Virus record (IMG/VR): IMGVR_UViG_3300021185_003947
Source: a virus
Lineage: Duplodnaviria > Caudoviricetes
Length of the DNA stretch: 64,000 nt
Direction: 5' to 3' (one strand)
Under the pieces are notes generated by a model. It was given only the letters and a program-made list of their open reading frames with translations. It was not told the DNA's origin and did no database searches. Positions 3,001 to 23,900 of this stretch are shown here, piece by piece. Each line of letters opens with the position of its first letter. Position 1 is the stretch's first letter. The translations under genes were made by a program, and so were the position numbers.

Positions 3001-6000
3001 TCGTTACTTTCACCAAATATGAAATTTTGATTTCCATTTGTATAAAGAGTATTACTTGTTCCTATTACATAAGATTTATTTGTACTTCTTACTGTAGAAG
3101 CATTTGCTAATCCGAACAAATTATCTCTACCTATAGTATAAAGATCTGTTCCACTATTCATTGAGTCTTGAATATTATTTTGGCCAAGGAATAGATTATT
3201 ATCTGTTAAAATAATATTTTCTTTACCGATAGCAATACTGTTTCTACCTTGTGTAGTGGTAGCAGTGCCTCTAAATACTATATTTCCTTGACTTCTTCTT
3301 TGTCCAACTTTATTTTTTTCGCCAAGAGATATAGAGTTTTTACCTCTAGCATAAGGTTCTTCACCCATACCTATAGAGAAGATTCCTAAATCAGAATTTA
3401 CATGCTCATCAAGTAAAACCTTACCGGCTCTAATAAGTCCAGCTCTTGAACTATACATAAACATATTATTATATGTGTTACCTGGGAAGGTTCCGGCAGA
3501 ATCAAATATAGCAGAATCTGTGGATGCATAAGTTAATAGCGTAGTTCCATCAACTTGGAAATCACCTCTAATATCAAATTCTGTATTAGGAGTCGTTTTT
3601 CCAACACCAACATTCCTTGGTGTTTCCATAAGAATAAATTCTCCATTGTCTTCAAATGGATTGCCGGCGATTGGAGACCCGCCGAGCGGATTTAATTTCA
3701 TTACGTCCCCGCCGTAAAGAATATCACCGCCTACAAATAAATTACCAGCACCTTTAACAGATGGATCAAACATATCAGATTCTCTACCAATCGATACGTT
3801 ACCACCTTGAATAGCTAAAAGATTTTCATCATCAACTTGACCCACAATATTCCGAAGTGTATTAGCCGGATCTTGACCAGCGCCTGGAGTTGCTGTTGAT
3901 GGTCTTAAACTAATATTCATGCTGTTATTAGCAACAACCTTACCGCCGCCACCAATAGCAAACGAGTTAGCTCCCTGAATAACTTGATCATGGCCTATAG
4001 CAAACGATGTATTACCAGAAACTTTATTATTAAAACCAAAAGCAAACGCCAAAGTTCCGCTAACTGAATCTAAAGCACCAAATATAAATGATGATTGTCC
4101 GTCAGCTATATTATCAATACCAATTATATTATTGTTATTGCCACCAAGCGACCTATTTCCTGCACCAATTAACAATGTGCTATTACCAGATGGTAAAGCC
4201 ATATTGTTTTTACCAAACATATAGCTTGCATTTCCAGCAGTAGTATTATTATGGCCAATCAGAACACTATTAATACCAATTGTTGTTGCAAACCCACCAC
4301 TTCGATCTGAGTTTTCAATTCCTATTAATACATTATTCCCACCTTTAACTATATTGCGCTGGCCCATAGCAATTGAATTAGTGGCGCCGGTGTTAACACT
4401 ACTACTATCACCTACAACAAAACTAAAATCACCTTTAGCTTTAACATTTTTGCCAAATGCTACGGAATAAGTACCAATATCGTTCCAGCTGTAATCGTTA
4501 TGATTTGTAAAATAGCCGCCGCGAGTTGCAGCTTTACCCGGAATAAATGAAAACCTTGAACCTTTATCTGAATCTATATCAGCTTCATCATAATTAGCTA
4601 AACCACTATATATAGTTTTTGCATCTAGATGCATTGATATCTCACCTGAAGTTTGGGGAGAATAGCCAGCATCTGTATTAAGTGGACCTTTAACTTGGAA
4701 TGGGCCACCATGTACTTCAAATCGTGCTTTAGATCTAGTAGTTCCTACACCTATTCTACCAAATCCTCCAGATGGATATGTAGCAGTAAAATCTCTTGGC
4801 TCAAAATAAGCATTATCTATATTATCAGATGTAAATAGACCGCCGCCAGTAAACGGAATTCCGTTTTGCATAAGAGAACCGGTGAAGTTAATAGTACCAT
4901 CTTTATGAACTTCAAATAAAGAGCTATCTTCAAGAGACATTGCTCTTATTAGAACTGATACATCTGAATCGTTTGCAGCATTAACACCATCTCCAGGAAA
5001 TCTTCTAATCGATGCCCCGTCTGCTTTTGATATATCACTTTTAAAATAGTTGATAGGTAAAGTAGATTGTAAATAGTGTCTACCCTGTGAGTCTTTTCCA
5101 GCGTGAGAAGCACTTATTTTTAAACCATAAAAATCTCTTGTTTGAGCTGAATCAGGAAAATATACTGAGTTAGCATCAAAATTATTTCTTAATTCAGGTC
5201 TATATTTGTAAGATCCAATTTTTACTCCGGATGCATCGATATTACCAGTTGATTTATGAACAATAAATCTATTCCATCCAGAGTCTTGCGCAACTTGTTT
5301 TGCTGTCATAAGACCATCAAAAGAAGCACCCGCCGCTAAACCGTAATAGAAAGATTGATGTTCGCCAAAATGTAATTCGCCGCCTTGAATTGAGTCGCTT
5401 AATCCTACAGTTAAAAGCGCACCAGGCACTAAAGAGTTAACTCTGAGTTTATCAAACACAGCTGGTGCATATGATATAACTTCACCGGTTGGTAAAATAG
5501 TTAATCCTGTATTTACTCCTTGTGTTGCTCCAATCCGTAATCCATTAGTTGAATCATATAAAAAGTCAGAATCGCCTTGTAAAGAAAAATCAGGTCCTAC
5601 ATGTGCAACCGCGCCTAATTTTAATGCGCCGCCCGGAACATTTAAATCTAGTTTATCAACTTTTAAATACTCAACAAAAGCAGAATCTGCTTTAAGGTAT
5701 TTGAAATATGCTGAGTCAGCTTGTAAATCTTTATTATAGAAAAGTCTATTTGTTGTCCAATAATTTTCATATTGTGTTCCGGCAGCTCCAGCCTGCCAGG
5801 TAAAAGATGCTCCAACAGGACCGCCTACTGTAATGCCTGCTCCTGATGCAAATGCAGAGTCGGCAGCATTATCAGCCACAACAATGTTTTTATCTACAAT
5901 AGTAACAGTTTCAGATTGAATTGATGTTGTTGTTCCTTGCACATTAAGATTACCAATAATATTAACATCACCCGCAACATCACCAAACGGAAATGGATCA

Positions 6001-6977: not shown

Positions 6978-6985
6978 TATTTATA
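6978..6985 (-). promoter_or_regulatory. T4-type late promoter TATAAATA for the giant fibre gene
   Basis: Exact consensus in the intergenic gap, about 40 nt upstream of the ATG. Confidence 0.7.
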
Positions 6986-8348: not shown

Positions 8349-8374
8349 AAAGAGCTCTCAGGAGCTCTTTTTTT
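8349..8374 (+). terminator. Intrinsic terminator between convergent genes
   Basis: AAAGAGCTC-TCAG-GAGCTCTTT hairpin followed by a T run. Confidence 0.7.
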
Positions 8375-8933
8375 GTTTAATAAAAATATCGACTGGAACA
8401 GCTAGTCTAAGATTAGAGTGATATGTTTTTACTAGATGATAAACATATCCTGGCATAATTATCACATCACTAGTTTTAGGTGCGTACTCAATAGGTTTAA
8501 ACATTTCAGTGGTTTTACCAAAATAACCTCTGTTAGCATTTGCTCTTGGATCGTACGCTACTAGCTCTCCACCTTTATCAATATCATCAGCAAGAACATA
8601 AAATACTGCAGCAAACTGAGCTCCGGAATGATTATGAATATTCATTGAATATCCCTTTTGAGATCCTGTTAACCAAGAACTAAATTCATAAGACATATCG
8701 TTTAAATCACTATTAAATACTTCTTTAAAAAATTCTGAATATTTTTCTATAGCCAAATCTTTTAATAATGGAATTTTATCTGTCAGTGTACCGCTGTCGT
8801 ATTCAGCCTGTGGTTTCATAATATTAGTACTAAGTAAAATCTCTTGAACTAATTCTTCGCATTGGTCTGAAGTAATTTGAGTTTTGTATATTGGTGTGGA
8901 CCAACACTGATTAATACCCGATTTCAACATCAT
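8358..8933 (-). CDS. Putative 2OG-Fe(II) oxygenase (HxH...H type)
   Basis: HNHSGAQFAAVFYV...GGELVAYDP...PGYVYHLV...RLAV double-stranded beta-helix motifs. Confidence 0.75.
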   Translation of the reverse strand: MMLKSGINQCWSTPIYKTQITSDQCEELVQEILLSTNIMKPQAEYDSGTLTDKIPLLKDLAIEKYSEFFKEVFNSDLNDMSYEFSSWLTGSQKGYSMNIHNHSGAQFAAVFYVLADDIDKGGELVAYDPRANANRGYFGKTTEMFKPIEYAPKTSDVIIMPGYVYHLVKTYHSNLRLAVPVDIFIKQKKSS

Positions 8934-9315
8934 AATATCCTTTTATGTCACGAACCATACCATGAATTACCATCAGTGGCCAATCTATATTGTTGAGTAT
9001 ACTATCGTATATTTCTTTACTATTTTTATATGTTTTAAAATATGGATCATTACCAGCTAAAAGCATTGGATCATTTAACAAATCATAAAAATCTTCATTG
9101 AAGTCTTTACTAATCCAATAAGCATAGCATATTGCTACAACATAACTCTTGGCTGGATATAGCCATTCATCTACTTTTTCATTAAAGTGTCGAATAGCAT
9201 TTTTAATAATAACCTCTTGATTATCATCAAAAACTATTTCTACTTTATTTAAATCATCTGTATGATCTTTATTTAATCTATGGTAAACTTCTTGTTTAAC
9301 TTGCCATTCTTTCAT
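8911..9315 (-). CDS. Hypothetical protein in the radical SAM cluster
   Basis: 134-aa ORF overlapping both neighbours; no recognisable motif. Confidence 0.7.
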   Translation of the reverse strand: MKEWQVKQEVYHRLNKDHTDDLNKVEIVFDDNQEVIIKNAIRHFNEKVDEWLYPAKSYVVAICYAYWISKDFNEDFYDLLNDPMLLAGNDPYFKTYKNSKEIYDSILNNIDWPLMVIHGMVRDIKGYYDVEIGY

Positions 9316-10204
9316 GATACCAATCCAATAATCCTCTATATCCGTTACAGCTATTATTTAAATCTTTGACATATCGATAATGCTCTGTTAAGCAGTTTCC
9401 AAAATACTTACATGAAGCACATATAGGACTTATCATTTCTTCTTTTTCTTTATTTGTCCAATCAATGTATTGTTCCCAAGAATCCAATTCAAGAAAGAAT
9501 TCTTTATCCTCTTCATCAAATTCCAAGACACCAAATTTGCCAGAAGGAGTGATGTATATATGATCATCCGAAAATGCATTGTATCTTCCTTTCATTGATT
9601 CTATAATTCTGTCTTCATTTACAAATTCAAACTTCATAGTGTCTTTTAATTTAAGCCACTTTATAACAAAATCTTCAAAGTCTTTGTGTGTCACATTGTG
9701 AGCATTTGCTTGATTAATTGAATATGGTTTAATCTCAACAGATGTAATTGACGAACACATATTCAACATATTAATCATTTCAGATACATCTTTTTCTAAC
9801 ACCTTTGGAGAAGCTAAAACCAAAACTGCAATAGGTACTGTACTCATTAACATATTATTAAATACAAGTTCAGACTTTTCTCTTGCTTCAAAATCATATG
9901 AAACAGAAAGATATACATCATCATCAAAAAAGCCTGGATGCATCATAGAATAATTTGTGTTGATGCTAATTTTACCTGAATAGTATTTTTTTATAACATC
10001 TTTAATGCCATAAAAATATGACTTTTTCATTGCGCCAACTTCGCCGCCGTATAAGTCAATATGTTCAATATTATGTACCTGAGATAGCAATATGTCTAGT
10101 TTATTGAACGAAATTTGTTTTTGATCTCCAAGTTGCTTAGTAGATAGGTAACAAAAATCACATCTAAAATTACAAAAATATGAAGGATTGATCGATACGA
10201 TCAT
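9296..10204 (-). CDS. Radical SAM protein with a Cys-rich SPASM/twitch-like C-terminus
   Basis: CNFRCDFC (CxxxCxxC), GGE motif, C-terminal CASCKYFGNC...C. Confidence 0.88.
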   Translation of the reverse strand: MIVSINPSYFCNFRCDFCYLSTKQLGDQKQISFNKLDILLSQVHNIEHIDLYGGEVGAMKKSYFYGIKDVIKKYYSGKISINTNYSMMHPGFFDDDVYLSVSYDFEAREKSELVFNNMLMSTVPIAVLVLASPKVLEKDVSEMINMLNMCSSITSVEIKPYSINQANAHNVTHKDFEDFVIKWLKLKDTMKFEFVNEDRIIESMKGRYNAFSDDHIYITPSGKFGVLEFDEEDKEFFLELDSWEQYIDWTNKEKEEMISPICASCKYFGNCLTEHYRYVKDLNNSCNGYRGLLDWYHERMAS

Positions 10205-10815
10205 TACCTGGCCGGAAAGGAAATATTCATTACTACTGCAAGTCTATCTTCTTCACCATAATAAGGAGTTACTTCATGCCATACATGTGCCGGAACAATA
10301 ATAATTGTATTTTTTTCAGTCTCAATAGACATTTTAGATTTAGGTCTTGTTTTTATAACCTGGTTAAATGCTGGGTCATGAAAAATTAATTTGCCACCAT
10401 CTTTATCATTATCTACACAGTCTAAATAATAAACCGCAACCATTGAAGCACCACTATGACAATGCAAACCTTTATAATCACCATTTCTCATAAAGGGCAA
10501 TCTTCCGGTGGTCAATTCCATCCGTTCTAAAATTTCGGCATGTGTAATTGATTCATCATATTCATTAGCTAGTTTTAAAAATGACTTTGCAAAAAAATCA
10601 TATAAACTTTTTATTTCATTATAATTTTTAATATTATCATCTGTAAATAACGGGATATGCACTCCATCATCTCCACCATCTTGATATGAAAGACCGGCCA
10701 TAGCTAAATGATTTCTAAATATTGCTTGACATACTGAATTAAGTGTACTACTTTCTTCTTCATTAATATCATGCAATTCATGTAACATTTTTATTGGAAA
10801 AATAGTTTTTATCAT
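10204..10815 (-). CDS. Putative 2OG-Fe(II) oxygenase (HxH...H type), paralog of 8358-8933
   Basis: HCHSGASMVAVYYL...GGKLIFHDP...PAHVWHEV...RLAV. Confidence 0.75.
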   Translation of the reverse strand: MIKTIFPIKMLHELHDINEEESSTLNSVCQAIFRNHLAMAGLSYQDGGDDGVHIPLFTDDNIKNYNEIKSLYDFFAKSFLKLANEYDESITHAEILERMELTTGRLPFMRNGDYKGLHCHSGASMVAVYYLDCVDNDKDGGKLIFHDPAFNQVIKTRPKSKMSIETEKNTIIIVPAHVWHEVTPYYGEEDRLAVVMNISFPAR

Positions 10816-11846
10816 GCGTATTCCCTCTCATACGGCGTCAATTGTCTATCGATGCTATTTATACTGATTATATCAGTTGCTAAAGTCTTCATATGTTTAC
10901 AATGATCTTCTACCATATTATGCTGTTTTAAATCTTTAATAGTTTTTTTACATCCATTACAAATTTCAAACATAGGACAAGTATAACATGCATTTTTTAA
11001 ACTCATTAAACTTAAATCTGTTGCAAGAGGTGTTGAAAACCCACCACTCATTTCGTAATCAAAATCAATAGCCTTATCTAAATCATCGCCAAATGCACCA
11101 CATGAATAGTAGTCACCTTCAGGTTGAAGTGTCCGAATGCCAGAATCGCATGTTCTTGTTTGTGGACATATAGTAGATTCTCCTCTTAGTCGTACCATCA
11201 TCTGTTGAGTGTTATGTTCCCAATCGCTTAATCCAGCTTTCCATATTTCAACATAACGTTCATATATTTTCGATAATTGATATGGAGCAGACTGAGAACC
11301 TGATGCCATAGCATAATTTACTTTACAGACTACATCCATTTTCTTTGCAAGTTCAACTGTCTTAATATGAGTATCTTCATTCTCTTCAACAATAACTGCT
11401 ATGAATGAAGGTCTATACCCAACATGTTCAACCATTGCATCTGAACACTTCCAAAAATCTTCTTCTGTAAATTCACTATAATCACCTTTTAATCTCCCTC
11501 CTCCATATTGAAATGATGTAGCTACACCAACTCGAGGATGGTTAAAAAGTTTTTTCCATTTCATTGGTTTCATAAGAAATGGATATAAATTTGTTGTAAG
11601 TGATATTGTTGCAGGCAGCTCATGCTTATCAAGATACTCTATAATTTTCCAATAGTAATTTGGTTTCATCATTAATGGATCGCCACCATTAACAATAATT
11701 GTTTGAGTATCTGGAAAACGTTTTAAAAACTTAAATATTTTATTTAAATCAAGAGTAGCAGTATTATCTTCAAACGTAATTTTAGATGATGAACAAAATG
11801 AACATTTAAAATTACACAATTCTGTTGGTTTGACAATTAGGTCCAT
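10812..11846 (-). CDS. Radical SAM/SPASM-like protein
   Basis: CNFKCSFC, GGDPL, CPQTRTC...YSCG...CYTCPMFEICNGC. Confidence 0.9.
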   Translation of the reverse strand: MDLIVKPTELCNFKCSFCSSSKITFEDNTATLDLNKIFKFLKRFPDTQTIIVNGGDPLMMKPNYYWKIIEYLDKHELPATISLTTNLYPFLMKPMKWKKLFNHPRVGVATSFQYGGGRLKGDYSEFTEEDFWKCSDAMVEHVGYRPSFIAVIVEENEDTHIKTVELAKKMDVVCKVNYAMASGSQSAPYQLSKIYERYVEIWKAGLSDWEHNTQQMMVRLRGESTICPQTRTCDSGIRTLQPEGDYYSCGAFGDDLDKAIDFDYEMSGGFSTPLATDLSLMSLKNACYTCPMFEICNGCKKTIKDLKQHNMVEDHCKHMKTLATDIISINSIDRQLTPYEREYA

Positions 11847-12382
11847 GGCGAATTGCTAACTTTAAACCCAAAATTCATAGTGATTCTGTGCATATCAGGA
11901 TCTCTGAAATGTTCAACTCTGTGTTCGAACTGTTTATCTTGGCTTCCTACTACTACATCATATTTTTGAGGTAAATGAAAGGCTGTGATTCTATTATTTT
12001 GTGATATATTTCTAAACATAATTTCACCACCAGCGTCTTTATTCATATCAGTAAAATATAAAAGAAACATTATATTTGCACCTTCACAAAAATCATTATG
12101 CCAATGACATGAAGTTTGTTCGGTGCCATTCCAACAATGATAATAAATCAAATCTTGTTTTTCTGAATATGGTTTTAAATAATGATTAAAAAGATAATCA
12201 GCAGTCATTAGCATTTTCTTTCGCATACCCAATATATAATAATTTAAAGGAAATCGATAATCTTTTCTATTACCAATACCTCTAAGCCATTTTATATTAG
12301 GAATAGTATCTTCTAAATATTGAAACGCTCGAACGTTATTTTCTGTGTAAAATCCATCATCCATTTTCCAACCATTTTTCAT
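11837..12382 (-). CDS. 2OG-Fe(II) oxygenase (prolyl-hydroxylase-like)
   Basis: HWHND (HxD)...GGEIMF...FEHRV...RITMNF. Confidence 0.75.
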   Translation of the reverse strand: MKNGWKMDDGFYTENNVRAFQYLEDTIPNIKWLRGIGNRKDYRFPLNYYILGMRKKMLMTADYLFNHYLKPYSEKQDLIYYHCWNGTEQTSCHWHNDFCEGANIMFLLYFTDMNKDAGGEIMFRNISQNNRITAFHLPQKYDVVVGSQDKQFEHRVEHFRDPDMHRITMNFGFKVSNSPWT

Positions 12383-13524
12383 AGCATTTTTACCTTTTGT
12401 CTAAATCCATATGATAAATCATCTTCACCATCACGTTTTGGTTTAAATCCCTTTGTTTTTTTAACGTAGTTAAACGTTTCTTTAAAAACACATTCTTCCA
12501 TATCATTGTGATCACCTGGCATATCAGCTTTTACAAAGCATGTGAATGGACAGTTTTCATAATATTCACACTCAAAACAATTATATTTTTTTAAAAACTT
12601 TTCTACCATCTCTCCTGTTTCAAATAGTGTTTCACCAGTTTTTTTATCTCGCTGATATGCTACACCACAACATCCACCGGGTGATGAACCATCAGGTTGA
12701 ATAGTTATTGAATTACCTCTTGTGCACATCATTGCACCAGTTTGATTCAATGGATCATGAAATGCATCCATATTTTCGCACTCAGGATAGTTATCTACTA
12801 AATATTTATTGAATGCTAATAACTCACTGTCTTTAGGAATTAATTTTGCATCTGCTTTAATTAATGGCGATGGCATATAAGCATCAAAATCAACTGGGAA
12901 GTTTTTATACAAATAATCAAAAGTGCTTTTATCGTTACTTTTTATAATTGTTTGTACATTTTGGCTAGTAGTAACAATTGAAACGTTTCTAATATAATCT
13001 TTAAAAGTCTCAACATTTTCTAAGAATATTTCTAGTTGACCTTTGTTAAATCTACCTCTTGGATCATAAGAAGTTGAAAGCTTTACATCGTGCTTATTAC
13101 AAAAGTCCATAACCTTATCTGAATTTTTTTTGTCAAACATAAAATTAGTAAGATAATTAAAATAAATTCTTTTGTCACCAATGTTAATCTTGGATTTGAC
13201 TAAGTCCATAAATTCTTCATATACATCTAAAAAGCCTTTTTCAATCCATAGATCTTCAAATAATTCTCCACCTAATAGATGTAATTTATAGTCTTTTGAT
13301 CTTGGCGAATTGTTAATAAATTTAGCAACAGTATCGCTTTTTGCTAAAATTTCTTCTCGAGTAGCTCCAACCATTGAGTTATGATCTTGTGGACAAAACA
13401 CACATTTTAAATTACAATGTTCAAAGAATATTATAACAAGTTCACTTGATCGAGTAATCTTGCTTCCTAAGATTTTGTATATATCAAAATCAAGTGGAGC
13501 TGGATTAATAGGTGCTACAGACAT
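12379..13524 (-). CDS. Radical SAM/SPASM-like protein
   Basis: CNLKCVFC, GGELF, CTRG...CCG...CFECEYYENCPFTC...C. Confidence 0.88.
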   Translation of the reverse strand: MSVAPINPAPLDFDIYKILGSKITRSSELVIIFFEHCNLKCVFCPQDHNSMVGATREEILAKSDTVAKFINNSPRSKDYKLHLLGGELFEDLWIEKGFLDVYEEFMDLVKSKINIGDKRIYFNYLTNFMFDKKNSDKVMDFCNKHDVKLSTSYDPRGRFNKGQLEIFLENVETFKDYIRNVSIVTTSQNVQTIIKSNDKSTFDYLYKNFPVDFDAYMPSPLIKADAKLIPKDSELLAFNKYLVDNYPECENMDAFHDPLNQTGAMMCTRGNSITIQPDGSSPGGCCGVAYQRDKKTGETLFETGEMVEKFLKKYNCFECEYYENCPFTCFVKADMPGDHNDMEECVFKETFNYVKKTKGFKPKRDGEDDLSYGFRQKVKML

Positions 13525-15185
13525 TCTTTACTTACCTCTGACATAATTATATGTCTATTTTTTTCTATAAATTTATTTATAGTATTTGCTCTAAACTCTT
13601 GATTTAAAACTTTAATGCTTTTTGGTTGAGAATTTGGATTAAATATATCTCTTATTTCAGAATGTATATCATCCCATCTATCTAATTTACTTATAGCTTC
13701 ATATGCTTTTTTAGTAAAGACTGATGGCGATATGCTATTTTCAAGCATAGGATAAAAGTGCTGCAATAAATAATTTCCAGCACTATTCATAAACCACATT
13801 TCATGCATTTCTTCAATTGTAAACGAAAAGCACGATGATATTGTTTTGAAATACGATTTTTTATTTTTGTACAAATTATTCCAGCTATCAATTCCCTGTT
13901 CATCCGCAATATCAGTATAAACTTCAACTGTTCGAATATCATATTTAATTTTATATTCCTGAGAATTAAGCGCTGAATCCGGAAGAAACATATAATCATG
14001 TCTATAAGAACCAAACGATTTAAAATTCCAGATATATTCCATTTCATTATAAAAGTCTTCTATTGTAGAACCTGGCATTGCAAGGATCATTTCTAAATTA
14101 GGTATCGGAAACCCATGCTTTGAACATTGCTCATTAATGTGTTTACTTAATTTTAATTTATCTTCTGTATTTAAATCAACTCTTTCAGCTATTTTCATTG
14201 CAATGTCAGAACTGCTTTGAATAGACACTGATGGAACTATCGATATATTGGCCATCTCACTCCACATATCTTTTCCATTTTTCATATTTGGAGAAGTGTA
14301 ATTTGTTCCAACAATTTCAAAATACTTATCAATTAATTTTTTTCTTCTATTTAAATCCTTAGATTTCATGGTAGAAATATCAGTTAAATTAAAACCATTT
14401 GTCCAAGCATATTCGAATATTTCAAAGTCTCTTTCAAAAAAAGCTCCAAAGTTTGCATCATTTAAATAAGCAGATCTATAACCGGCTTTTAGCATAGCAT
14501 TGATATCACGTTTTACTATGTCCAAGGATTTCTTATAAATCTTTGTATTAATACCTCCACCCCATTCGCAAAATACACACTTATAAGGACAACCTCTTGT
14601 TGTCTCTAAAACAATAAACGGTTCCATTTTATTATTACGAGCGTATTTAAGTAATTTTGTAAGATATTCTAAATGATCTTCGTATACTGAATAATCTTCT
14701 TTTGATAAATCATGTATGAATTTTACATCAGATCTTAATTCCCATGGAATACTTGTTGGATCTATTCTGTTTTCAATAAACTGATCGATAAGCTCAGCCA
14801 TAAATGGCTCACCTGGTTTAGTAGGTCTACAAATTAAATCATACTGAGGACGTGATGCTAATAGTTCTGGTTCATTGGTTCCAATATGTGGACCACCTAA
14901 AACTAGTATTTTTTCTGGATATTTATTTTTAATTTTATTAGAAATTTCATCACATATCATATAGTTCCAAGTATAAGAAGAAAACATAATTATATCTGCT
15001 TCAATTATATCATTTATTACTTCATCATAAGATTTATAGCTATTCCATTTATATGGTGATTCTAACCACTTTACTTTTTTACTGTATTTGCCAAAACGAG
15101 AATAGTAACTTTGCATTAATAAAAATGTAAAGTTATTTGCTAGTGACCAGTCAGCGTGAGGAGGATTAATAAATGCTATAATCAT
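13515..15185 (-). CDS. Radical SAM protein with an N-terminal B12-binding-like domain (class B-like)
   Basis: N-terminal IAFINPP...FSSYTWN...VLGGPH and ETTRGCPYKCVFCEWG. Confidence 0.82.
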   Translation of the reverse strand: MIIAFINPPHADWSLANNFTFLLMQSYYSRFGKYSKKVKWLESPYKWNSYKSYDEVINDIIEADIIMFSSYTWNYMICDEISNKIKNKYPEKILVLGGPHIGTNEPELLASRPQYDLICRPTKPGEPFMAELIDQFIENRIDPTSIPWELRSDVKFIHDLSKEDYSVYEDHLEYLTKLLKYARNNKMEPFIVLETTRGCPYKCVFCEWGGGINTKIYKKSLDIVKRDINAMLKAGYRSAYLNDANFGAFFERDFEIFEYAWTNGFNLTDISTMKSKDLNRRKKLIDKYFEIVGTNYTSPNMKNGKDMWSEMANISIVPSVSIQSSSDIAMKIAERVDLNTEDKLKLSKHINEQCSKHGFPIPNLEMILAMPGSTIEDFYNEMEYIWNFKSFGSYRHDYMFLPDSALNSQEYKIKYDIRTVEVYTDIADEQGIDSWNNLYKNKKSYFKTISSCFSFTIEEMHEMWFMNSAGNYLLQHFYPMLENSISPSVFTKKAYEAISKLDRWDDIHSEIRDIFNPNSQPKSIKVLNQEFRANTINKFIEKNRHIIMSEVSKECL

Positions 15186-15218: not shown

Positions 15219-16349
15219 TTAAACTGTTACATATTTAGCAATAGTTGTTTTATCAGAAACAGAATTAGCATCTAGTAGCGAATGAATTAAATAATGATTT
15301 ACAGTTTCAAGTTCTAATGCAAAGAATTTTTCAGGTTCTTTATCATCTGATGATTCAATTAAAATAAGCTTATCTAATAGTTCATCTGTTAATTCAGTAT
15401 TAATTGCTGGTAAGAATTCTAATATGCTATCATCTCTTAAAGTAAAATCAGACCATTGACTTTCTATAATAGCTACAAACTCTTTAATAGTATTAAGATC
15501 TGAATCAGAAATATTTTCGAATATTACATTATCACTACTAGAAGCGCCACTTAGATATTTTATAGACCACATATCGTCTTTAATAAACAGTTGAGCAAAT
15601 TTAGAAGTATCTGTAAAAATGTCATTAATATTATTTAATGTGTAAGTTTTGTCTAAATTTAATTTATTAGCAAAAGATTTAGTTAAGAAATGTTGAAAAA
15701 ATATTTCTTTTAATTCGTAAAGATATTGTTCAAACACTTTTTTCAGCAAAGGTTTAACTACACCTTTTAACTCTGCTTTTGAAGATTTGTCATTAAGATA
15801 ATTTGCTAGTAGATGTTCAACACTTATTGTGCTTTTATATTTTACCATAAACGCTTTTTTCTTGGCGGCTGAAGGGGCTTTAACACTATCATAAATGGTA
15901 TTGAAATTTTCTACTTTTAAAATTTCACCAGATCCTAATTTTGCATTATTACTTGAAAACCTGCCTCTAAAAAATGTATTAAATTTAAAAGCATGTGCTT
16001 TTACTAATGATTCTACTGAATCAGCTTTCGGAGTTTTTAAAATAAATTTATACCAAGTAGACATAATAAATTGAAATGCTGCACTATCGCAATAAACAAC
16101 GATTCTTTTATTTGTAGAATCACATTTGGCAGCTAATTCATCAAAAAGAGTTGTAGCATCTTTAAACGTTTTATCTTTTCCTAGAATATCATTCCATTCA
16201 AGTCCATATGCAATGAGTTGACCAGATAATATTTTTTGAAGATCTTCTAAAAGATTAAAACCGTTACTTTGCGATACAACAATACGATCAAAATTTGGAT
16301 CGATGATATTATCTGTTGTTACATAAATCTTCTTAAACAGATGTATCAT
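15219..16349 (-). CDS. Hypothetical protein (376 aa) in the cluster
   Basis: Long ORF coupled to the upstream gene; no recognisable motif. Confidence 0.75.
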   Translation of the reverse strand: MIHLFKKIYVTTDNIIDPNFDRIVVSQSNGFNLLEDLQKILSGQLIAYGLEWNDILGKDKTFKDATTLFDELAAKCDSTNKRIVVYCDSAAFQFIMSTWYKFILKTPKADSVESLVKAHAFKFNTFFRGRFSSNNAKLGSGEILKVENFNTIYDSVKAPSAAKKKAFMVKYKSTISVEHLLANYLNDKSSKAELKGVVKPLLKKVFEQYLYELKEIFFQHFLTKSFANKLNLDKTYTLNNINDIFTDTSKFAQLFIKDDMWSIKYLSGASSSDNVIFENISDSDLNTIKEFVAIIESQWSDFTLRDDSILEFLPAINTELTDELLDKLILIESSDDKEPEKFFALELETVNHYLIHSLLDANSVSDKTTIAKYVTV

Positions 16350-16993
16350 AACTGTTCTCCTGTGGCGATTGAACTTGTTAGTAAAAACATTGGGTTATTA
16401 ACATTCGCCCAATAACTAAATAGATTATTTCCTTTAAACATATACTCATTAAAATATGATTTATAATATGTTTTATGATGTTCAATTACATTGGCATAAA
16501 ATAAATAAAAGCTTTCGTATTTAAGTAAATTTACAAAATTTATTCCAGTTAAATCTTTTGTATCATCTTCTGGAAATGATTTAACGTAGTCTTTTAATTC
16601 ATCACATTCAACAGTGTACAAATTATAAAGCGAAAGTGAATCTAATTTCTTAGCCCAAGTAGTAAGTATTTCAACGTTATCATCAATAAAATCTTTTTCT
16701 ATTAACTCACTAATACCTTTCATCTGCAATAATAAACTAATTACTCTTTCTTCAAGAATAGGAATACTTATAATAAAATTAGCTAAAAGATATTCTCTAG
16801 TAAGATCATCAAAATCTTTCTGATCAGTAAAACCAATATTGCATGGCAATTCCAGATTACTGAGATATGTTAATAGCTTTGTTCCCTGCAATTGTGAATT
16901 TTCATAATCAACCATATAAAAAGTTTGATCATCTTCAAAATACAATTTCAAATCTTCAATACTAAATGGTGCAGTAACATCAATAACTTTCAT
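16346..16993 (-). CDS. Hypothetical protein (215 aa) in the cluster
   Basis: Start at MKVIDV gives an ATGA overlap with the stop of the CHxS-protein gene. Confidence 0.72.
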   Translation of the reverse strand: MKVIDVTAPFSIEDLKLYFEDDQTFYMVDYENSQLQGTKLLTYLSNLELPCNIGFTDQKDFDDLTREYLLANFIISIPILEERVISLLLQMKGISELIEKDFIDDNVEILTTWAKKLDSLSLYNLYTVECDELKDYVKSFPEDDTKDLTGINFVNLLKYESFYLFYANVIEHHKTYYKSYFNEYMFKGNNLFSYWANVNNPMFLLTSSIATGEQL

Positions 16994-17553
16994 CTTCTTC
17001 CTCTCGAGCCATGACAACTGCTATGACAACTTGCATGACAAATATTAATATTTACAGTAACAGTATTGGAAACTAAACTATTAAAACGGGTCTGTAAGTC
17101 TGTAAATTTAGCTTCAAGACCAGAAGCACTAATTTGAGTACCAGCAGTTAAAGTAACTCCAGCCGCAGATAATGTTTGTGCATAACTACTGTTTAAATAA
17201 GCTTTTCGTGTTTGATTAAAAATTTGTCCAGGATTAGGATATGTTCCTGTATTACCACCAGGGCCTGTTACTGTTCGGGTTGCCTTTAAATTTCTAATTT
17301 GACTATACGCCGCGGTTTCATTTTCAATTGCAGTATTGATAACAGAAGCAGTGATTGGATTTTGATTTATATCGGCTCCAGTAATTCCAATGCTCCGACC
17401 AGCAGTCGTTCCACCAAAATATGATGTAGAAAATCCACTAAACGGAACTGAATTAGTACCCCAAACAATACCAGAGTTTGCACTTGCCGGTGCAAAATCC
17501 GCAAATCTATCTATTATATTCTGTGCGCTAATTGGACTTGTTAGTGTAGCCAT
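16990..17553 (-). CDS. Thr/Ser/Gly-rich protein with C-terminal CHASCHSSCHGSRGRR; candidate substrate of the cluster enzymes
   Basis: 187 aa; every Cys and His lies in the last 16 residues; GAGG RBS and late promoter upstream. Confidence 0.85.
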   Translation of the reverse strand: MATLTSPISAQNIIDRFADFAPASANSGIVWGTNSVPFSGFSTSYFGGTTAGRSIGITGADINQNPITASVINTAIENETAAYSQIRNLKATRTVTGPGGNTGTYPNPGQIFNQTRKAYLNSSYAQTLSAAGVTLTAGTQISASGLEAKFTDLQTRFNSLVSNTVTVNINICHASCHSSCHGSRGRR

Positions 17554-17579: not shown

Positions 17580-17587
17580 TATTTATA
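17580..17587 (-). promoter_or_regulatory. Late promoter TATAAATA for the CHxS protein
   Basis: Exact consensus overlapping the stop of the upstream radical SAM gene, 26 nt before the ATG. Confidence 0.75.
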
Positions 17588-18602
17588 CATGTTTTGCGAG
17601 TTCCATCATTAAACTTTTTGGTGCACCACAAATATCTCCATCCCATCCTAATTGATGACAATCACCTCCACAAAATCTAGATACAGGGCAAGATAAACAA
17701 TTAGGATTACGCATTTTTTCTTCTAATATAGTACGAATTCTTTTTGGACTTTTTAACAATGTATCAATTGAATCGTCTAAACTTCCAAAGGCTTGTTCTG
17801 GCGCGCTGTTTGGACATCCTGCAATAGTACCATTGCCGTTTATTGTAAATAGCTTTTGTTCACAATCTCTACAAAAAGTTCCACATGTAGTCATAGTCTT
17901 TTCAAACTTAGCATATACATTTTCTAGAAAGTCGTTTTCAAACCAATCTCGTGCTCCGTGCTCTTCACTTTGCATGTGCATTTTTAAAAAATATTCATCA
18001 AGTTCTTTATTGCTTGGAAATATTTCTGATGCTTCTCGGGCACTACCATTATTAGTTAGTCTTTCCAGTGAAACTTCTTGCACACCAAGTCGGCGGCACC
18101 ATCTTAATAATACTATGGGATCTTTTGCAAGCGTATCTTTTGTAAGACTAATAAACAAACGAATAGTAACACCATCTGCCAAAAGTGTTTTAACATTTTT
18201 ATGCCAAAGATTATATTGGTTTTTATTTTCAAATCGAATCTTACGATCCCACGATGTGCCAAGTCTATTTCCAAGAGGACCTTTAATAAAATCCATATGC
18301 TGATCTTTTAATTTAAAAACTAAATTAGTTGTGGCACCCCACGACATTTGATCCCATAAACCATCACATGCATCATATACCTTTCGCATTTGGCCAACCG
18401 GCACAAGAAACGGTTCACCGCCATGAAATTCCATATGTATAGAATCTTGTGCTGCAGGTTTTTCTTTTCTAAATCTATGAATCCAGTCAACTAGCTTATC
18501 AGTATTCCAATAAATCTTTTGACCACTTCTTCCGCTTGTAAAACAATGCGCACAATTAAGCTGACATGTTTCTGTTGTTTTGAGATACATCAGCCAGTTC
18601 AT
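17583..18602 (-). CDS. Radical SAM/SPASM-like protein
   Basis: CQLNCAHC, FHGGEP, CGTFCRDC...GCPN...CLSCPVSRFCGGDC...C. Confidence 0.92.
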   Translation of the reverse strand: MNWLMYLKTTETCQLNCAHCFTSGRSGQKIYWNTDKLVDWIHRFRKEKPAAQDSIHMEFHGGEPFLVPVGQMRKVYDACDGLWDQMSWGATTNLVFKLKDQHMDFIKGPLGNRLGTSWDRKIRFENKNQYNLWHKNVKTLLADGVTIRLFISLTKDTLAKDPIVLLRWCRRLGVQEVSLERLTNNGSAREASEIFPSNKELDEYFLKMHMQSEEHGARDWFENDFLENVYAKFEKTMTTCGTFCRDCEQKLFTINGNGTIAGCPNSAPEQAFGSLDDSIDTLLKSPKRIRTILEEKMRNPNCLSCPVSRFCGGDCHQLGWDGDICGAPKSLMMELAKHV

Positions 18603-19083
18603 TATTAATTTTATCCTCTGTATAATTTTCTAAACCAAAGCTTAAAGTTAATGCTTCATCTTTATTTAATGCTTGATGAGGCGTATAAGCTGGTATATGT
18701 ATATATTCTCCTTGAATAATAGTCACTGGCTTATCATCAATTATTAAAGACTTAGATCCTTCACAGCAATATATAACAACATCATCTGGATCGGTATGCA
18801 TATCAAAAGAATAAGACCCAGCCATTGCAAAAAATAAATGACATGTAACATGTTGTTCATGTTTCCAATCAGTTTTTATTTTCCAACAATATTCATATAT
18901 TGTTGAATTAAAGTTTTCCATACGTTCGATTTTTATAGAATGGTTTTGTTTTTGTACTTTACAAAAATCACTGAAACTAGTAATTAGCTGTTCACGACCC
19001 TGTTCATCTATAGCATAAACCATATTTTGTTCATACATATGATTTGCAGTAAGTGCAGATATGAGTTGAGATTTATTAATCAT
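18556..19083 (-). CDS. Cupin/JmjC-like oxygenase
   Basis: FDMHTDPDDV (HxD)...IHIPAYTPHQA. Confidence 0.72.
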   Translation of the reverse strand: MINKSQLISALTANHMYEQNMVYAIDEQGREQLITSFSDFCKVQKQNHSIKIERMENFNSTIYEYCWKIKTDWKHEQHVTCHLFFAMAGSYSFDMHTDPDDVVIYCCEGSKSLIIDDKPVTIIQGEYIHIPAYTPHQALNKDEALTLSFGLENYTEDKINNELADVSQNNRNMSA

Positions 19084-19089
19084 TATTTA

Positions 19090-19118
19090 ATTATATACTA
19101 TTTTTAATTAAATGTAAA
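19090..19118 (-). promoter_or_regulatory. Sigma70-like promoter TTTACA-N17-TATAAT at the head of the enzyme cluster
   Basis: Near-consensus hexamers with 17-nt spacing immediately upstream of 19083. Confidence 0.75.
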
Positions 19119-19125
19119 CAGTTAT

Positions 19126-20685
19126 TTACACTTTAAGGACACATTCTATCAATTTTTCTTCATCTACAGTAGACGATTCTAAAGCTACACCTACCATCAT
19201 AGCTCCATTAAATTCTTTACTTGCTCGGCCATTATGGTGTGTATATACTGGATCACCTTTATGAACTCCACCAACAACCCTTACTGGAACTCTTCCTTTA
19301 AGACCTAAAGCTTGACCAGGAGCGTCTGCATTCATTAAATAAGCAGGTTGAGCTGAAATTACGCCGACTGGAATTCCACTTGATGTGCAAGGAGTAGTTT
19401 CTTCAGTTTTATTAAATGACGCCATCATTACTGTTCCAACTGGATGCTCTTCGCTTGTAGTATATTTTTCTGCAAGGTCAGCATAATTTGCAGTTGCAGC
19501 ATTACCAGCAATTGTACCGGAAGATAATGTTTGTGTTGATGGATTATACATTAAATGTCCATCATCAGTATCAATATAAGGTCTTTGATAACCTGTGCCA
19601 TTATTATCGCTAAATAATACTTGGTAATTTACATCGTCATTTTTTTCATCAACTTTTACAAAATCAGCTTCGCCTCCAGAAACTGTACAAGCGCCAGTAT
19701 TTGCCATTGTAACATGACCAGATAATGCTGCAGTAGTAAAACCTGAGCCATTACCAATTAGAATTTGTGTGTCTGCTACTGTAATATCTGAAGGATCTGC
19801 TGCTGAAGAACTATTTCCAACTTTTACTGAATTTGCTGGCATATTGGCAAGCTTATCATTAGTCACAGCATCATCAGTTATTTGACCTGTTATTACTTGC
19901 CCTGCCTGAATACCTCCAGATGCTTGGCGACCAATTACAGTATTAGTTCCTGCTTGTACAGAGCCAATATCACCAGCAGCTGATCTACCAATAACTGAAT
20001 GATCTGGTATTGCTAAATCTCCTGGATCACCACTAGTACCTGCCTGGCGAGTTTTTATTGTATATCCTGCCATATTAGCAAGCTTAGCATTAGTTACTTG
20101 ATCATCTGATATCATATCAGTTTGAATTTGCACTTCTTCAATTGTTCCAGAATCTGTTTTACCAAGCACTCTATTTGCAGTTACGATGTCTTGCATTTTA
20201 TCATAGGTTACAACATCAGGCTGAATTGTGACCACGCCAGCATTTGTCATAAGAACATCTTGAGATAAAGCGGTAGATGTAAAACCAGTTCCATTACCAA
20301 TTAAAATTTGCTCGTTAGTAACTGCCTTATTTGATGATGCTCCAGTAGTTCCGGCATCTCTTACCTTAACAGTATTTGCTGGCATATCTTCTAATTTAAG
20401 ACCAGATGCTTCTTGAGTTAAACCGTGACCACCCGCTACTGAAAATGTTCCACTTGAATCTCCAGTAAGGTTTCCATTAACACTAGTTTTTAAAATTCCA
20501 TTTCCTGCATTATAGTTTCTTCGCACAGCTTTACTAAAATTTAAGGCTTTTACTATATTTGAATCATGGCCAGCATAGTCACTACTAAGATCATCTAGAT
20601 CACCGATGTGAGCAGCAATATTATTAGATTTTACTCTAAAAGTGTTAATTGTATCACTTAAATTTATAACTGTCTGTCTAGCCAT
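19126..20685 (-). CDS. Tail fibre-like protein with VTNxKLANM repeats and a C-terminal chaperone/autocleavage-like domain
   Basis: Repeated VTNAKLANM and ILIGNG[TS]GFT blocks; C-terminal NYADLAEKY...GRVPVRVVGGVHKGD. Confidence 0.72.
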   Translation of the reverse strand: MARQTVINLSDTINTFRVKSNNIAAHIGDLDDLSSDYAGHDSNIVKALNFSKAVRRNYNAGNGILKTSVNGNLTGDSSGTFSVAGGHGLTQEASGLKLEDMPANTVKVRDAGTTGASSNKAVTNEQILIGNGTGFTSTALSQDVLMTNAGVVTIQPDVVTYDKMQDIVTANRVLGKTDSGTIEEVQIQTDMISDDQVTNAKLANMAGYTIKTRQAGTSGDPGDLAIPDHSVIGRSAAGDIGSVQAGTNTVIGRQASGGIQAGQVITGQITDDAVTNDKLANMPANSVKVGNSSSAADPSDITVADTQILIGNGSGFTTAALSGHVTMANTGACTVSGGEADFVKVDEKNDDVNYQVLFSDNNGTGYQRPYIDTDDGHLMYNPSTQTLSSGTIAGNAATANYADLAEKYTTSEEHPVGTVMMASFNKTEETTPCTSSGIPVGVISAQPAYLMNADAPGQALGLKGRVPVRVVGGVHKGDPVYTHHNGRASKEFNGAMMVGVALESSTVDEEKLIECVLKV

Positions 20686-20917
20686 TTGATTCTACCATTT
20701 TCTTTGTTATTTGCGCCAGCATTTGTTTTATTTCGCTTACATCATTTTTCAACTCGGCAAGTTCTTTTTCTTTTTCAGCGTCTAATTTTTTCTTTATTCT
20801 AGCTCTATTGATAGCATCACTATTAATATTTAATATAGCACCACTATTTAAATCTTTAACTAAATTGGGATGGCCCTGAATTTTTATACTGTTTATTTTA
20901 CTTTTCACCTTAAACAC
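20678..20917 (-). CDS. Small coiled-coil hypothetical protein
   Basis: 79 aa, overlapping both flanking structural genes. Confidence 0.7.
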   Translation of the reverse strand: MFKVKSKINSIKIQGHPNLVKDLNSGAILNINSDAINRARIKKKLDAEKEKELAELKNDVSEIKQMLAQITKKMVESNG

Positions 20918-23900
20918 CCAATGCTATAACTCTTAAATCTTTAACTGTTGGAACTTTTGAACTATTATTAGCAAAGAATACTATTTTTATTTGAAACGTA
21001 GTAAATGCTGGTATAGTTCCATCAGTTCCACCAATTAAATAATTGTATTCTTTATATGAATATGGATCATCTGATATTGAAACTGGCGCTTCAAGTGTGG
21101 CAAGTTCCCAATTAATATCTGTCAATATAGTATCTTCTGTACCCGTTTTAAAATATACGTCAAATAAAGCACCGGTTGGTCTATTTGCTGCTAACATTAC
21201 TTTTAAACCAACTGCAGTATTTGTTAACGTTACAGGTTTTGTAATATGTTTAGCAAGCGCACTTCCACTAAATGGTGTTGTTTCTGCAGCATAATCGAAG
21301 ACCACGTTTTGACCAGAAGTAGCTACATCAATAGGTCTATCAATTTCATTTTTTGTAAGTACTAATGAAGCTCTTTGTAAATCTATTACTGGAGAAACAA
21401 ATGAACTTGTTGTACTTAATGATATTCTTAAAGATCCAGTATTAACTCCACCTAATCCACCAATACCTGTTGCAGTGTCTTCTTTTACGGCATTGGCTAC
21501 CATTATTGGATTTTCAAAATGATTTTTTTGATTAAGCGCAATATCAGTATATCCTCCAGCTGGCGCAATGTATGGTGTTTCTAATGCAACATTAGAATAT
21601 CCACTATAAATGCTTGCTTTTGGAATTACACTTGTTAAAGGTGGATTAAGCATTTGAACAATAGGATATAAAGTATTTCCTTGAATATTTTTAGTTGCGG
21701 ATATTACACTACCACCACCTTGAGCAGCTGAAGTAGCTGATCCTGCAGCTAATGTAATTTTATATCCTGTTGGATCTATATGCGTTATCGTATGAGTAGT
21801 GTTAAGTTGAACGGCTGTAACACCACCAACTGCTATAGCTCCAGTAATAGCAACTTTATCTCCAACAAATAAATTATGATTCTTATGGAAAACTCTTATT
21901 GAAGTTGGAGCTGAAGTATTTGTTAGAATTGGATTAGGACCTAATAATGCAAGAGGTAAATCTGCTGTATTAAGTTGAGCAATTGCTTGTATATTAGTAG
22001 CAAAATCAGCTCTATATAATGTAAATTTCATATCTTGTTCTTGAGAAGCTTCCCAAGTGGTACTGTTTTGCGACTTAAAGAAAGATCCTAAGAATGGTTG
22101 TTTTGTAATTCTTCTTGAAGTAGAACCTAATTCAAAGTCACCCATGAATGATGTCCATAGTAAATAATCAGTATTATCACATATACATACAACTGCATAT
22201 TCAGTTCTACCAGACAAATAAATCGGCTCATCAAAAGTAAATGTCGTAGGAAGCGATGCATCATCAGAAATACTAACATTTCCAGGTGATAAGTATTTTC
22301 TAGATCCTGGTACAATTGTATTTGATGCTGGATAGCCATTTACAAGAGGTCTTAATTCAATCCATACTGGTAATGTAGCATGCTTTGTTTTAAAATATAA
22401 ATCAATTTTGCAAACAAATATACCTTCATCTTGAGGAATATAAAACGATTGACCTAATGGATCCCTTTGCCTATTATCATCCTCCACCCGCACAGGTGGT
22501 ATAGGTCTCAATCTAGATCCAGTAACTACTCTACTACTACTTGAAACTCTAGAGCCAACTACAGTAAGATGTCGAGTAGATAATATTTGTTCTTGAAAAG
22601 TTTCTAGAGCGCCAGAAGCATTATATGATGTTACTGCAGATGATCCTACCACGCCTCCGTTTTCAGGAGTTTCTGTAACATCAAGTAACATAAAATCAGC
22701 TTGACCAGTTCTAAATTTAGTTGTACTATTATTGGGAATAAAAAATGATCCTGATATTCCTCCTAGTGCATCACTAAGTAAAGCACCTGCCCCATCCGGG
22801 TGAGTTGTAAGATTATTTGGTGATTCAAATTCAACTCTTGCTGAATTAATTCTATCAAAGTTTCCAGTACTTCTAACAAAATCATCCATTTTAACGTTAT
22901 TTAAGTATGCAAAATGATATGCATTTGGCCGCAACCCAATAGCTTCAAAACTAACTTTTCTACTTCTCATAAATGGTATAACTGCTACATCAATAATTCT
23001 ATCACCCAATGATGTTCTAATAGTTTCAGAAGCTACTACTCTATTTACAATTGAACTTGTGGTTTGGTCAAATCCCCAAACAGTTAATCTTCCACTAGTC
23101 TGAGAGAATGCTCGACTAGATGATGTTGTAGTTCCTGCTACTGTAGTTTCATCACCAACTTCAAGACCTTCAATATCATTACCTAACCAACCCCATTCGG
23201 ATTGATCAAAGAGAAGTGCTTGGTCAAGATTTAATCTTGTTCCACCATCTATTACTTTTGCCGCCGCTCTTTGATCTACTTTCCATTCATCTGATTGAGG
23301 AGATAGATTTATTGACCCATTATATATAGAAATCATATATGGATTAACATTTTCTGTACGAGATACAACTGTTTGACTGATATATTCAACATCTGTATAT
23401 TTAATGTAAACGTTATCTCCTTTTAGAACAGTATCTGGAGTATCTACACCACTAACAGTCCTTGAAGAAGAAGTTGCAGCATCATAAATAAGTCCTACAT
23501 TGTATTCAGTAAATGGTGGATGTAAAGTCATAGTTTTTGGATTAACTGAAGCTCTATATTCTACTGAATTAGTATTTGAATGAAATAGATCTTTAAAATT
23601 GTCTACAAGAAATCCAGATTTAGTTCTATTATTTCCACTGCCGTCAACTACTTCAAAAGCGTTTGTATCAAGTTCTAATAAACTAAGTGATACGGTTTCT
23701 TCAAGTAAATCTACTCGCTTATCGATTTTACCAATATCTTTCATGGTATAACCTTTATTTTCAACAAACTTAACGACCATGTCAGAAGAAGAAATTGTAC
23801 CACCATTAAGTGATGATCTATATAGTTCTAAAGATTTAGGTGGTTGAGATGGTAATACTGGATTATCGGCTGGAGTTCCTTCTAGATTTTCTAAAATACC

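Follow-up and report, generated by a model that had tools for sequence, protein, structure and literature searches.

We analysed a 64,000-nucleotide (nt) stretch of a tailed-phage genome (Duplodnaviria, Caudoviricetes; IMG/VR record IMGVR_UViG_3300021185_003947), referred to below as the window, and found on its minus strand a gene (16990..17553) for a 187-amino-acid (aa) protein whose C-terminus carries three Cys-His-x-Ser units, here called the CHxS protein. The conservation of this tail far exceeds chance expectation, and the gene sits in a cassette with radical S-adenosylmethionine (SAM) enzyme genes. We propose, with a probability of roughly 0.6, that the CHxS protein is made late and serves as an accessory part of the virion, probably of a fibre, and that the enzymes of a dedicated maturation cassette share its tail as their substrate.

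The CHxS open reading frame (ORF) was judged real. It consists of a conserved alpha/beta body (residues 1-171) and a disordered tail, with the C-terminal end ICHASCHSSCHGSRGRR, and the C-terminus reads ...NINICHASCHSSCHGSRGRR up to the stop codon. The last 16 codons (16993..17040, minus strand; CHASCHSSCHGSRGRR) encode the invariant part of the tail, the presumed modification site. As the initial annotation had stated, every Cys (three) and every His (three) of the protein lie in the tail, within residues 172-181, and Thr, Ser, Gly and Asn abound in the body, of which they make up 43%. The back-translated (CHxS)x3 motif occurred once in the window (17011-17040, minus strand) and in none of 100 shuffles. 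Marine metagenomes yielded, in a word-indexed search, 396 homologs with lengths of about 187-201 aa, and the identical protein was present on contigs of up to 206 kb. In 117 of 120 close homologs, down to 50% identity, [VI]-C-H-x-x-C-H-x-x-C-H-x-x-R-x-R-R formed the C-terminal end. Profile A2, built from phage and bacterial members and searched against 1.84 billion representatives, yielded 837 family clusters at 50% identity, 595 of them with E <= 1e-10. The exact (CHxx)3-RxRR tail ended 143 of the 150 best cluster representatives (142 with three units and one with four, counted jointly), and the motif first noticed in a single protein is thus kept across its homologs. Among the cluster representatives, no variation was seen at the nine positions with C, H or R, position 4 of the unit is Ser, less often Asn or Ala, and acidic residues are absent from the tails of these 143 except for two Asp at position 8. 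Outside the tail, the representatives contain a mean of 0.35 Cys per protein. Since the tail is invariant while identity of the body drops to about 20-30% across the superfamily, the tail is far more constrained than the body. Pfam and NCBIfam held no model for the protein, no Pfam domain was found in it, and its PHROGs match (phrog_35144) was restricted to the tail.

The AlphaFold2 model of the CHxS protein, based on 59 homologs, had a predicted local distance difference test score (pLDDT) of 82.8 and a predicted template modelling score of 0.78, and showed an alpha/beta domain in which helices 10-26, 69-85 and 143-161 pack on strands 86-96, 109-120 and 164-172. The tail is disordered from about residue 173 in the model, with low confidence over the last 15 residues (pLDDT 50-61), and appears exposed. 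For the body, Foldseek against the PDB found no similar solved structure (best E 1.4), VIA-align wide gave no usable match (best Z 4.2), and the AFDB clusters returned the protein's own family only; the family profile had a single chance-level match among PDB sequences. The initial annotation had read the body as a virion beta-protein, and we rejected such a beta-rich, fibre-like body, because the model gives an alpha/beta domain with three long helices and no known fold.

Through the tail pattern we recovered 80 IMG/VR loci, confirmed by tblastn; the gene counts given here and below are lowered by loci that are cut at contig ends. The tail stood at the end of an ORF in all 80 viral loci, and in all 80 the CHxS gene sat in one cassette. 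A SPASM radical SAM gene, rSAM_A (17583..18602, minus strand), lay directly upstream in 79 of them, and three further radical SAM genes (rSAM381, rSAM344 and rSAM302) were each found in 63-73 loci. Every inspected prokaryotic locus with the tail pattern likewise had adjoining ORFs with the CX3CX2C motif. Neither of two findings that would have refuted the initial annotation, a motif not kept among homologs and homologs mostly without radical SAM neighbours, was made. The view that the tail behaves like a radical SAM substrate gained ground from the near-constant position of rSAM_A and the invariance of the motif, and we regard it as quite probable, on this genomic evidence, that the radical SAM enzymes of the cassette act on the tail.

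The rSAM_A protein carries CX3CX2C at residue 13 and CX2CX5CX3C at residue 302, and scored 35.3 bits against the SPASM domain model TIGR04085 (cut-off 27), which places it among the SPASM proteins. The canonical SPASM motif CX2CX5CX3C is present in rSAM_A and rSAM381, and variants of it in rSAM344 and rSAM302. Because CX3CX2C starts at residues 11-37 in all radical SAM proteins of the cassette, none of them has an N-terminal recognition domain, the kind found typically in peptide maturases that depend on a leader. Against the equivalog models of DynA, anaerobic sulfatase maturase (anSME), PapB and HxsB, rSAM_A scored 34-45 bits, where the cut-offs are 340-450. With the rSAM_A ortholog profile, the sole solved structure that aligned over the full length was an anaerobic sulfatase maturase (E 3.7e-6), and CteB aligned over the N-terminal core only.

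We compared the cassette with known maturation systems and rejected each in turn. The Hxs models gave only weak matches to HxsB (TIGR03978; rSAM_A, 33.8 bits against 370) and HxsC (TIGR03977; rSAM344, 28.8 against 267.9), and neither HxsA nor HxsD was recognised. For the ranthipeptide family, the PapB model NF047865 scored 40.5 bits against 340, and no Cys-X3-Asp/Glu core motifs were present. The anSME model TIGR03942 reached 42.3 bits against 349.45, and the substrate here has no Pfam domain; the CXXX-repeat model TIGR04115 reached 37.4 bits against 350, over residues 8-66 only; and the QhpD family gave 25 bits against a cut-off of 453. A role in defence was also rejected, PADLOC having shown only weak matches to the radical SAM core of viperin-like proteins, as was a sorting signal of the PEP-CTERM or GlyGly-CTERM type, the tail having no hydrophobic segment. 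The kinship with Hxs or ranthi/sactipeptide systems that had been suggested at the outset therefore did not hold, all model scores being far below the curated cut-offs. Judged by these comparisons, the system would work like SPASM-type maturation of a protein or peptide, yet it falls outside the Hxs, ranthipeptide, CXXX-repeat and sulfatase-maturase families.

Display on the virion, a further proposal of the initial annotation, received indirect support from a jumbo phage. When the phage GenBank collection was searched with the cassette (megablast) and with the 187-aa protein (tblastn), no match appeared, and the jumbo-phage counterparts were reached solely through rSAM_A. Orthologs of this enzyme with 41-50% identity were found in the cultured jumbo phages Atu_ph07, Phosso, RSL2, RSF1, FLC6/8, SURPRISE13 and pPa_SNUABM_DT01. 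In RSL2 and Atu_ph07 the gene after rSAM_A likewise has the tail at its end (ORF068 in RSL2, ending ...VCHSSCHTSCHGSRGRR, and gp170 in Atu_ph07, ending ...FCHSSCHASCHNSRSRR); in both phages the other cassette genes follow. In the electrospray ionisation tandem mass spectrometry of Atu_ph07 particles purified with polyethylene glycol (PEG), gp170 is listed (Table S5) at 31.89 kDa with 8 unique peptides and 35.16% coverage (PMC6102473). The mass that we computed for the genome-translated tail protein of Atu_ph07 is also 31.89 kDa, so the identity of gp170 with the tail protein is secure. It was detected in gel fragments 1-9 and was highest in fragment 1, which corresponds to proteins of 87-127 kDa, while proteins of 29-34 kDa peak in fragments 7-8 (PMC6102473). 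The neighbouring enzymes gp164-169, gp171 and gp172 do not appear in the virion list, and the authors described gp170 as the start of a structural gene cluster (PMC6102473). Presence in the virion thus stands for a distant counterpart, the neighbouring enzymes being absent there, and bears on the window only at one remove; on balance we favour the CHxS protein as a component of the particle in this phage too.

A fibre-like protein of 519 aa is encoded upstream of the enzyme genes (19126..20685, minus strand) and carries a C-terminal Peptidase_G2 intramolecular-chaperone domain at 19129-19545. The match of its residues 381-519 to Peptidase_G2 (PF11962) was a marginal pass (25.5 bits, cut-off 25, E 1e-5), and the language-model neighbours of its C-terminal 139 residues were Peptidase_G2 clusters (score 0.95). 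Of the 80 viral loci, 68 contain the domain, and 66 of these have it at a near-fixed place on the strand of the CHxS gene, about 1.5-2 kb ahead of that gene's start. A weak Peptidase_G2 match was also seen in gp176 of Atu_ph07, which is a virion protein too. As for expression, TATAAATA, the T4 late-promoter consensus, lies at 17580..17587 on the minus strand, 27 nt before the CHxS ATG and overlapping the stop codon of rSAM_A, and is followed by a Shine-Dalgarno sequence ahead of that ATG. Of 80 related loci, 18 have the consensus within 100 nt upstream of the CHxS start, compared with a background rate of 1.3%. Its minus-strand copies in the window, at 6978, 7651, 10856, 13574, 17580, 27665, 31262, 41152, 47317, 58025 and 59239, each precede the start of a long ORF of that strand by 19-81 nt. 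These positions suggest a T4-type late promoter set, though the count in the window, 16 against 14.3 expected, shows no over-representation.

On the minus strand, the fibre-like gene is followed in transcription order by the first enzyme gene of the cassette, a cupin/JmjC-like oxygenase (18556..19083; Cupin_2, 33.2 bits; 61 of 80 loci), and then by rSAM_A and the CHxS gene. Next comes unk223 (16346..16993), for a 215-aa protein with no known fold (phrog_20767), whose ATG overlaps the CHxS stop codon (ATGA) and which, present in 76 loci, is the most constant non-enzyme partner of the CHxS gene. A less constant member of unassigned family, unk376 (15219..16349; 43 loci), precedes an optional class B, methyltransferase-like, B12-binding radical SAM gene (13515..15185; 29 loci), of which a 50% identical copy occurs in the Bdellovibrionota locus L053. 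The order continues with rSAM381 (12379..13524; radical SAM/SPASM with CX2CX5CX3C at residue 316; 73 loci), the 2-oxoglutarate (2OG)-Fe(II) oxygenase-like unk181 (11837..12382; 52 loci), whose Bdellovibrionota ortholog matches PF13640 at 31.8 bits, and rSAM344 (10812..11846; 66 loci), which has a SPASM-like Cys cluster and 53-61% identity to its counterparts in Bdellovibrionota and jumbo phages. The last four genes encode a 2OG-Fe(II) oxygenase (10204..10815), rSAM302 (9296..10204; 63 loci), the small conserved protein unk134, also of unassigned family (8911..9315; 58 loci), and a second 2OG-Fe(II) oxygenase (8358..8933). Pfam and NCBIfam held no model for unk223, unk134 or unk376; fold searches with the AlphaFold2 model of unk223 gave no match to a known fold, and protein atlas look-ups of unk223 and unk376 gave no usable lead. 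The predicted complex of the CHxS protein with unk223 scored 0.00, a value from which no conclusion was drawn, controls not having been run.

Giant ORFs lie on both sides of the cassette, at 3-6938 (minus strand, >2312 aa) and 20910-26174 (minus strand, 1754 aa), and presumably encode fibre or baseplate proteins; the counterpart of the latter in locus L001 carries DUF4815. On a 106-kb contig (L002:8489-20490), the cassette lies among small non-structural genes (HNH, DUF454) and includes at least five 2OG oxygenase genes. Three contigs of a 'Rhodobacteraceae' bin (L018:6062-6879, L024:6016-6776 and L042:1846-2681) encode two tandem CHxS-tail proteins of 125-140 aa. The gene for a fibre of about 1740-1980 aa with a G2-like C-terminus directly precedes them, and one lone radical SAM gene (about 390-400 aa) follows. 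This arrangement is probably a minimal, phage-borne version of the system.

We also scanned one genome per prokaryote species for the tail pattern and obtained 40 loci, about 30 of which had the motif at the exact C-terminus of an ORF of 125-260 aa. About 17 belong to Bdellovibrionota, some of them on contigs of 0.2-1.3 Mb, and the extended Bdellovibrionota loci contain orthologs of nearly the whole cassette. Their identities to the window proteins were 37-42% for rSAM_A, 29-46% for rSAM381, 53-58% for rSAM344, 39-51% for rSAM302, 30-35% for unk223, 33-49% for unk134 and up to 57% for the B12 radical SAM protein. On Bdellovibrionota chromosomes the genes common to the viral cassettes flank the tail gene, at 31-58% identity. 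The cassette spans T4-like, phiKZ-like and Rak2-like phages as well as predatory bacteria. In four Bdellovibrionota loci, a second, divergent rSAM_A paralog (about 25% identity) adjoins the tail gene (L135:7258-8238, L136:10534-11466, L137:9778-10710 and L138:8658-9593), and the closer rSAM_A ortholog lies a few kb off. Tails of four CHxS units followed by RGRR were seen in Bacteriovoracia (L026:864-1433 and L034:119-761), so the number of units may vary while the end stays fixed. In Firmicutes, a contig of Dysosmobacter segnis carries an ORF (L025:2-359, minus strand) with many CH[ST]SCH[SD]SCHSN units joined by short VPV/V linkers and ending in CHSARGRR, by its predicted product a variant of the tail with multiple repeats and from another phylum.

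In five of nine extended Bdellovibrionota loci (two BLAST queries), we found ORFs ending in a Peptidase_S74 chaperone, which is a lead and not a rule. The Peptidase_S74-ended ORFs are located at L052:5765-7006 (minus strand), L053:18597-19643 (plus strand), L054:16993-18063 and 18508-19470 (minus strand), L139:1005-1337 and L011:6610-7614. These ORFs are about 320-410 aa long and lie beside the cassette. The two that were read through, those of L052 and L053, begin like type IV prepilins, and that of L053 matched the Pfam N-terminal methylation motif; from its sequence, the combination of a prepilin start with an S74 end looks like an unusual pilin-fibre chimera. Such fibres are known Bdellovibrio adhesins, in a report that makes no mention of radical SAM genes (PMC10769870).

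In the mechanism that we propose, the body would fold to a compact alpha/beta domain, and the disordered tail would be threaded into rSAM_A, a SPASM enzyme without a leader-recognition domain, as in the sulfatase maturase. The tail would then pass to three more SPASM/twitch radical SAM enzymes, and these enzymes would abstract hydrogen and crosslink or oxidise side chains of Cys, His and Ser. Candidate reactions, between which sequence cannot decide, may be Cys thioethers, three-residue cyclophanes from His to Ser, and conversion of Cys to formylglycine, in the last case with a final tail unit in which Cys and Arg are spaced as in the sulfatase motif. The cupin and the 2OG oxygenases, and the B12 radical SAM enzyme where present, would add hydroxyl or methyl groups. 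The finished protein would enter the particle, most likely together with the product of the fibre gene lying just upstream, a protein that would lose its Peptidase_G2 chaperone domain by cleavage once folded. That the CHxS protein sits on the processed tip of the fibre is a tentative suggestion, and binding of a metal by the tail is likewise possible but doubtful.

Several known systems resemble parts of this scheme. Both rSAM_A and anSME/AtsB are SPASM radical SAM enzymes without a leader-recognition domain, anSME modifies a folded protein, and its target motif C-x-P/A-x-R matches the last tail unit C-H-[GSN]-[SA]-R in the distance from Cys to Arg. The CHxS protein differs in that it has no sulfatase domain, carries the motif three times at the extreme C-terminus without keeping the Pro/Ala position, and is accompanied by four radical SAM enzymes instead of one. 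Radical SAM enzymes can join the ring of a His to the second residue after it, at the beta-carbon (PMC11499958). The Hxs system and the His-containing triceptide cyclophane synthases (HaaB, HtkB) share with the cassette the H-x-S triplet, present in each tail unit, and paired or multiple radical SAM genes; in contrast to the HxS repeats of HxsA with a period of 3, the tail has a period of 4 with an invariant Cys between triplets, scores were 24-34 bits against cut-offs of 268-370, and the substrate here is a folded protein of about 190 aa in a phage virion setting. The ranthi/sactipeptide enzymes PapB and CteB and the QhpD-QhpC pair are comparable as SPASM radical SAM systems acting on regularly spaced Cys, and QhpD crosslinks a protein subunit and not a free peptide; the CHxS tail has no Asp/Glu acceptor residues, which distinguishes it from the ranthi/sactipeptides. 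On the side of the fibre, the T2-type adhesin gp38 is a small separate protein on the processed tip of gp37, encoded beside a fibre gene whose product is trimmed C-terminally after folding; His-rich motifs occur at fibre tips, and the T4 gp37 and gp12 fibres contain metal sites. The CHxS protein is likewise small and encoded beside a fibre whose C-terminus would be removed after folding, and it would attach to that fibre as gp38 does to gp37, but it has no sequence or fold similarity to these proteins, and no radical SAM enzyme is needed there.

The same observations were weighed against three other explanations. The cassette could encode a classical RiPP (a peptide ribosomally synthesized and then modified post-translationally), in which the body is an oversized leader and the modified 16-residue tail is released as a small crosslinked peptide, such as a metal chelator or an antibiotic. 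An invariant C-terminal core beside SPASM radical SAM enzymes is the standard RiPP layout, large protein-like leaders of the nitrile-hydratase-like and Nif11 types are known, and the occurrence in free-living Bdellovibrionota implies that the system does not require a virion. Of the parts of a strict RiPP, a core-like tail and modifying enzymes are present; the family scans found no RiPP recognition element (PqqD-like), and the radical SAM proteins lack N-terminal extensions. We consider this explanation unlikely, since scans of the conserved cassette core found no protease or exporter family, the body is conserved and confidently folded with homologs across the whole superfamily, and particles of Atu_ph07 contain abundant peptides from the body of its tail protein. 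An unmodified metal or Fe-S site, either a structural Zn, Fe or Cu site or a cluster carrier for the phage radical SAM enzymes, would account for three Cys-His pairs in a protein with almost no other Cys; the neighbouring enzymes would then act elsewhere, for example on the fibre, whose upstream gene accompanies the CHxS gene as regularly as some enzyme genes do. T4 fibres hold His-metal sites, and Fe-S assembly genes lie near the cassette on related contigs (PF01521 in L001). Fe-S carriers are also encoded by marine T4-like phages in which radical SAM genes are numerous (PMC5332604). A passive site leaves unexplained the invariant Ser positions, the R-x-R-R-COOH end and the near-obligate adjacency to SPASM enzymes, the subclass that acts on peptides and proteins, and one would not expect to find a carrier serving enzyme maturation in particles that lack the enzymes; we find a site of this kind improbable as well.

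A chaperone or scaffold that folds or trimerises the neighbouring fibre, and that contaminates particle preparations, seems less probable still. It would fit the neighbourhood of fibre genes, whose products lose chaperone domains of their own by cleavage, and the Atu_ph07 preparation was purified with PEG only; but the 35% coverage, 8 peptides and top-fragment enrichment of gp170 are unlike the one-peptide contaminants in the same table, and the need of a chaperone for four radical SAM enzymes would be unexplained. The reading of the CHxS protein as a late-expressed particle protein with a matured tail also has observations weighing against it. Purification of the Atu_ph07 particles was by PEG alone, and the list includes some evident non-structural proteins (PMC6102473). 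The loading buffer contained no reductant (PMC6102473), so the high-mass form of gp170 may be disulfide-linked and not enzymatically crosslinked. The tail and the gene order are all that gp170 shares with the window protein, and ORF068 of RSL2 is annotated in RefSeq as a hypothetical and not a virion protein. The cassette on the 106-kb contig L002 has no adjacent fibre gene amid its non-structural neighbours, so not every cassette shows the fibre link; signal peptides are absent from the bacterial members, which leaves a surface role in bacteria unexplained; the family scans of the conserved core identified neither a recognition element nor a protease; and modification of the tail is something that we infer for every member of the family.

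Radical SAM maturation is known for small peptides and a few enzymes, and maturation of a ribosomal product by such enzymes is accordingly the known element of the system. The new elements are the substrate family, its partner proteins, the set of four to five enzymes, the virion setting, and the distribution over phages and predatory bacteria. Our literature search found no report of radical SAM maturation on a phage particle protein; the genome papers of jumbo phages count the genes for cupin, radical SAM and 2OG oxygenase proteins among the accessory ones and give them no function, and a search for the tail motif string returned nothing relevant. A bolder and as yet doubtful proposal is that the CHxS protein would be the first virion protein finished by radical SAM chemistry, and that a module of 8 to 12 genes, common to three unrelated phage lineages and Bdellovibrionota, would make a crosslinked tail, possibly metal-binding or covalently attaching, at self-processing fibre tips for recognition of, or attachment to, prey or host. 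The system is open to direct testing, since the cultured phages RSL2, RSF1, FLC6 and Atu_ph07 carry it. Should the tail prove to be modified, a new substrate and enzyme family would be defined, probably with new crosslink chemistry on Cys, His and Ser; the radical SAM genes that are so puzzlingly abundant in marine T4-like phages would gain a function; and the fibres of phages would be linked at the molecular level to fibre-like adhesins of predatory bacteria.

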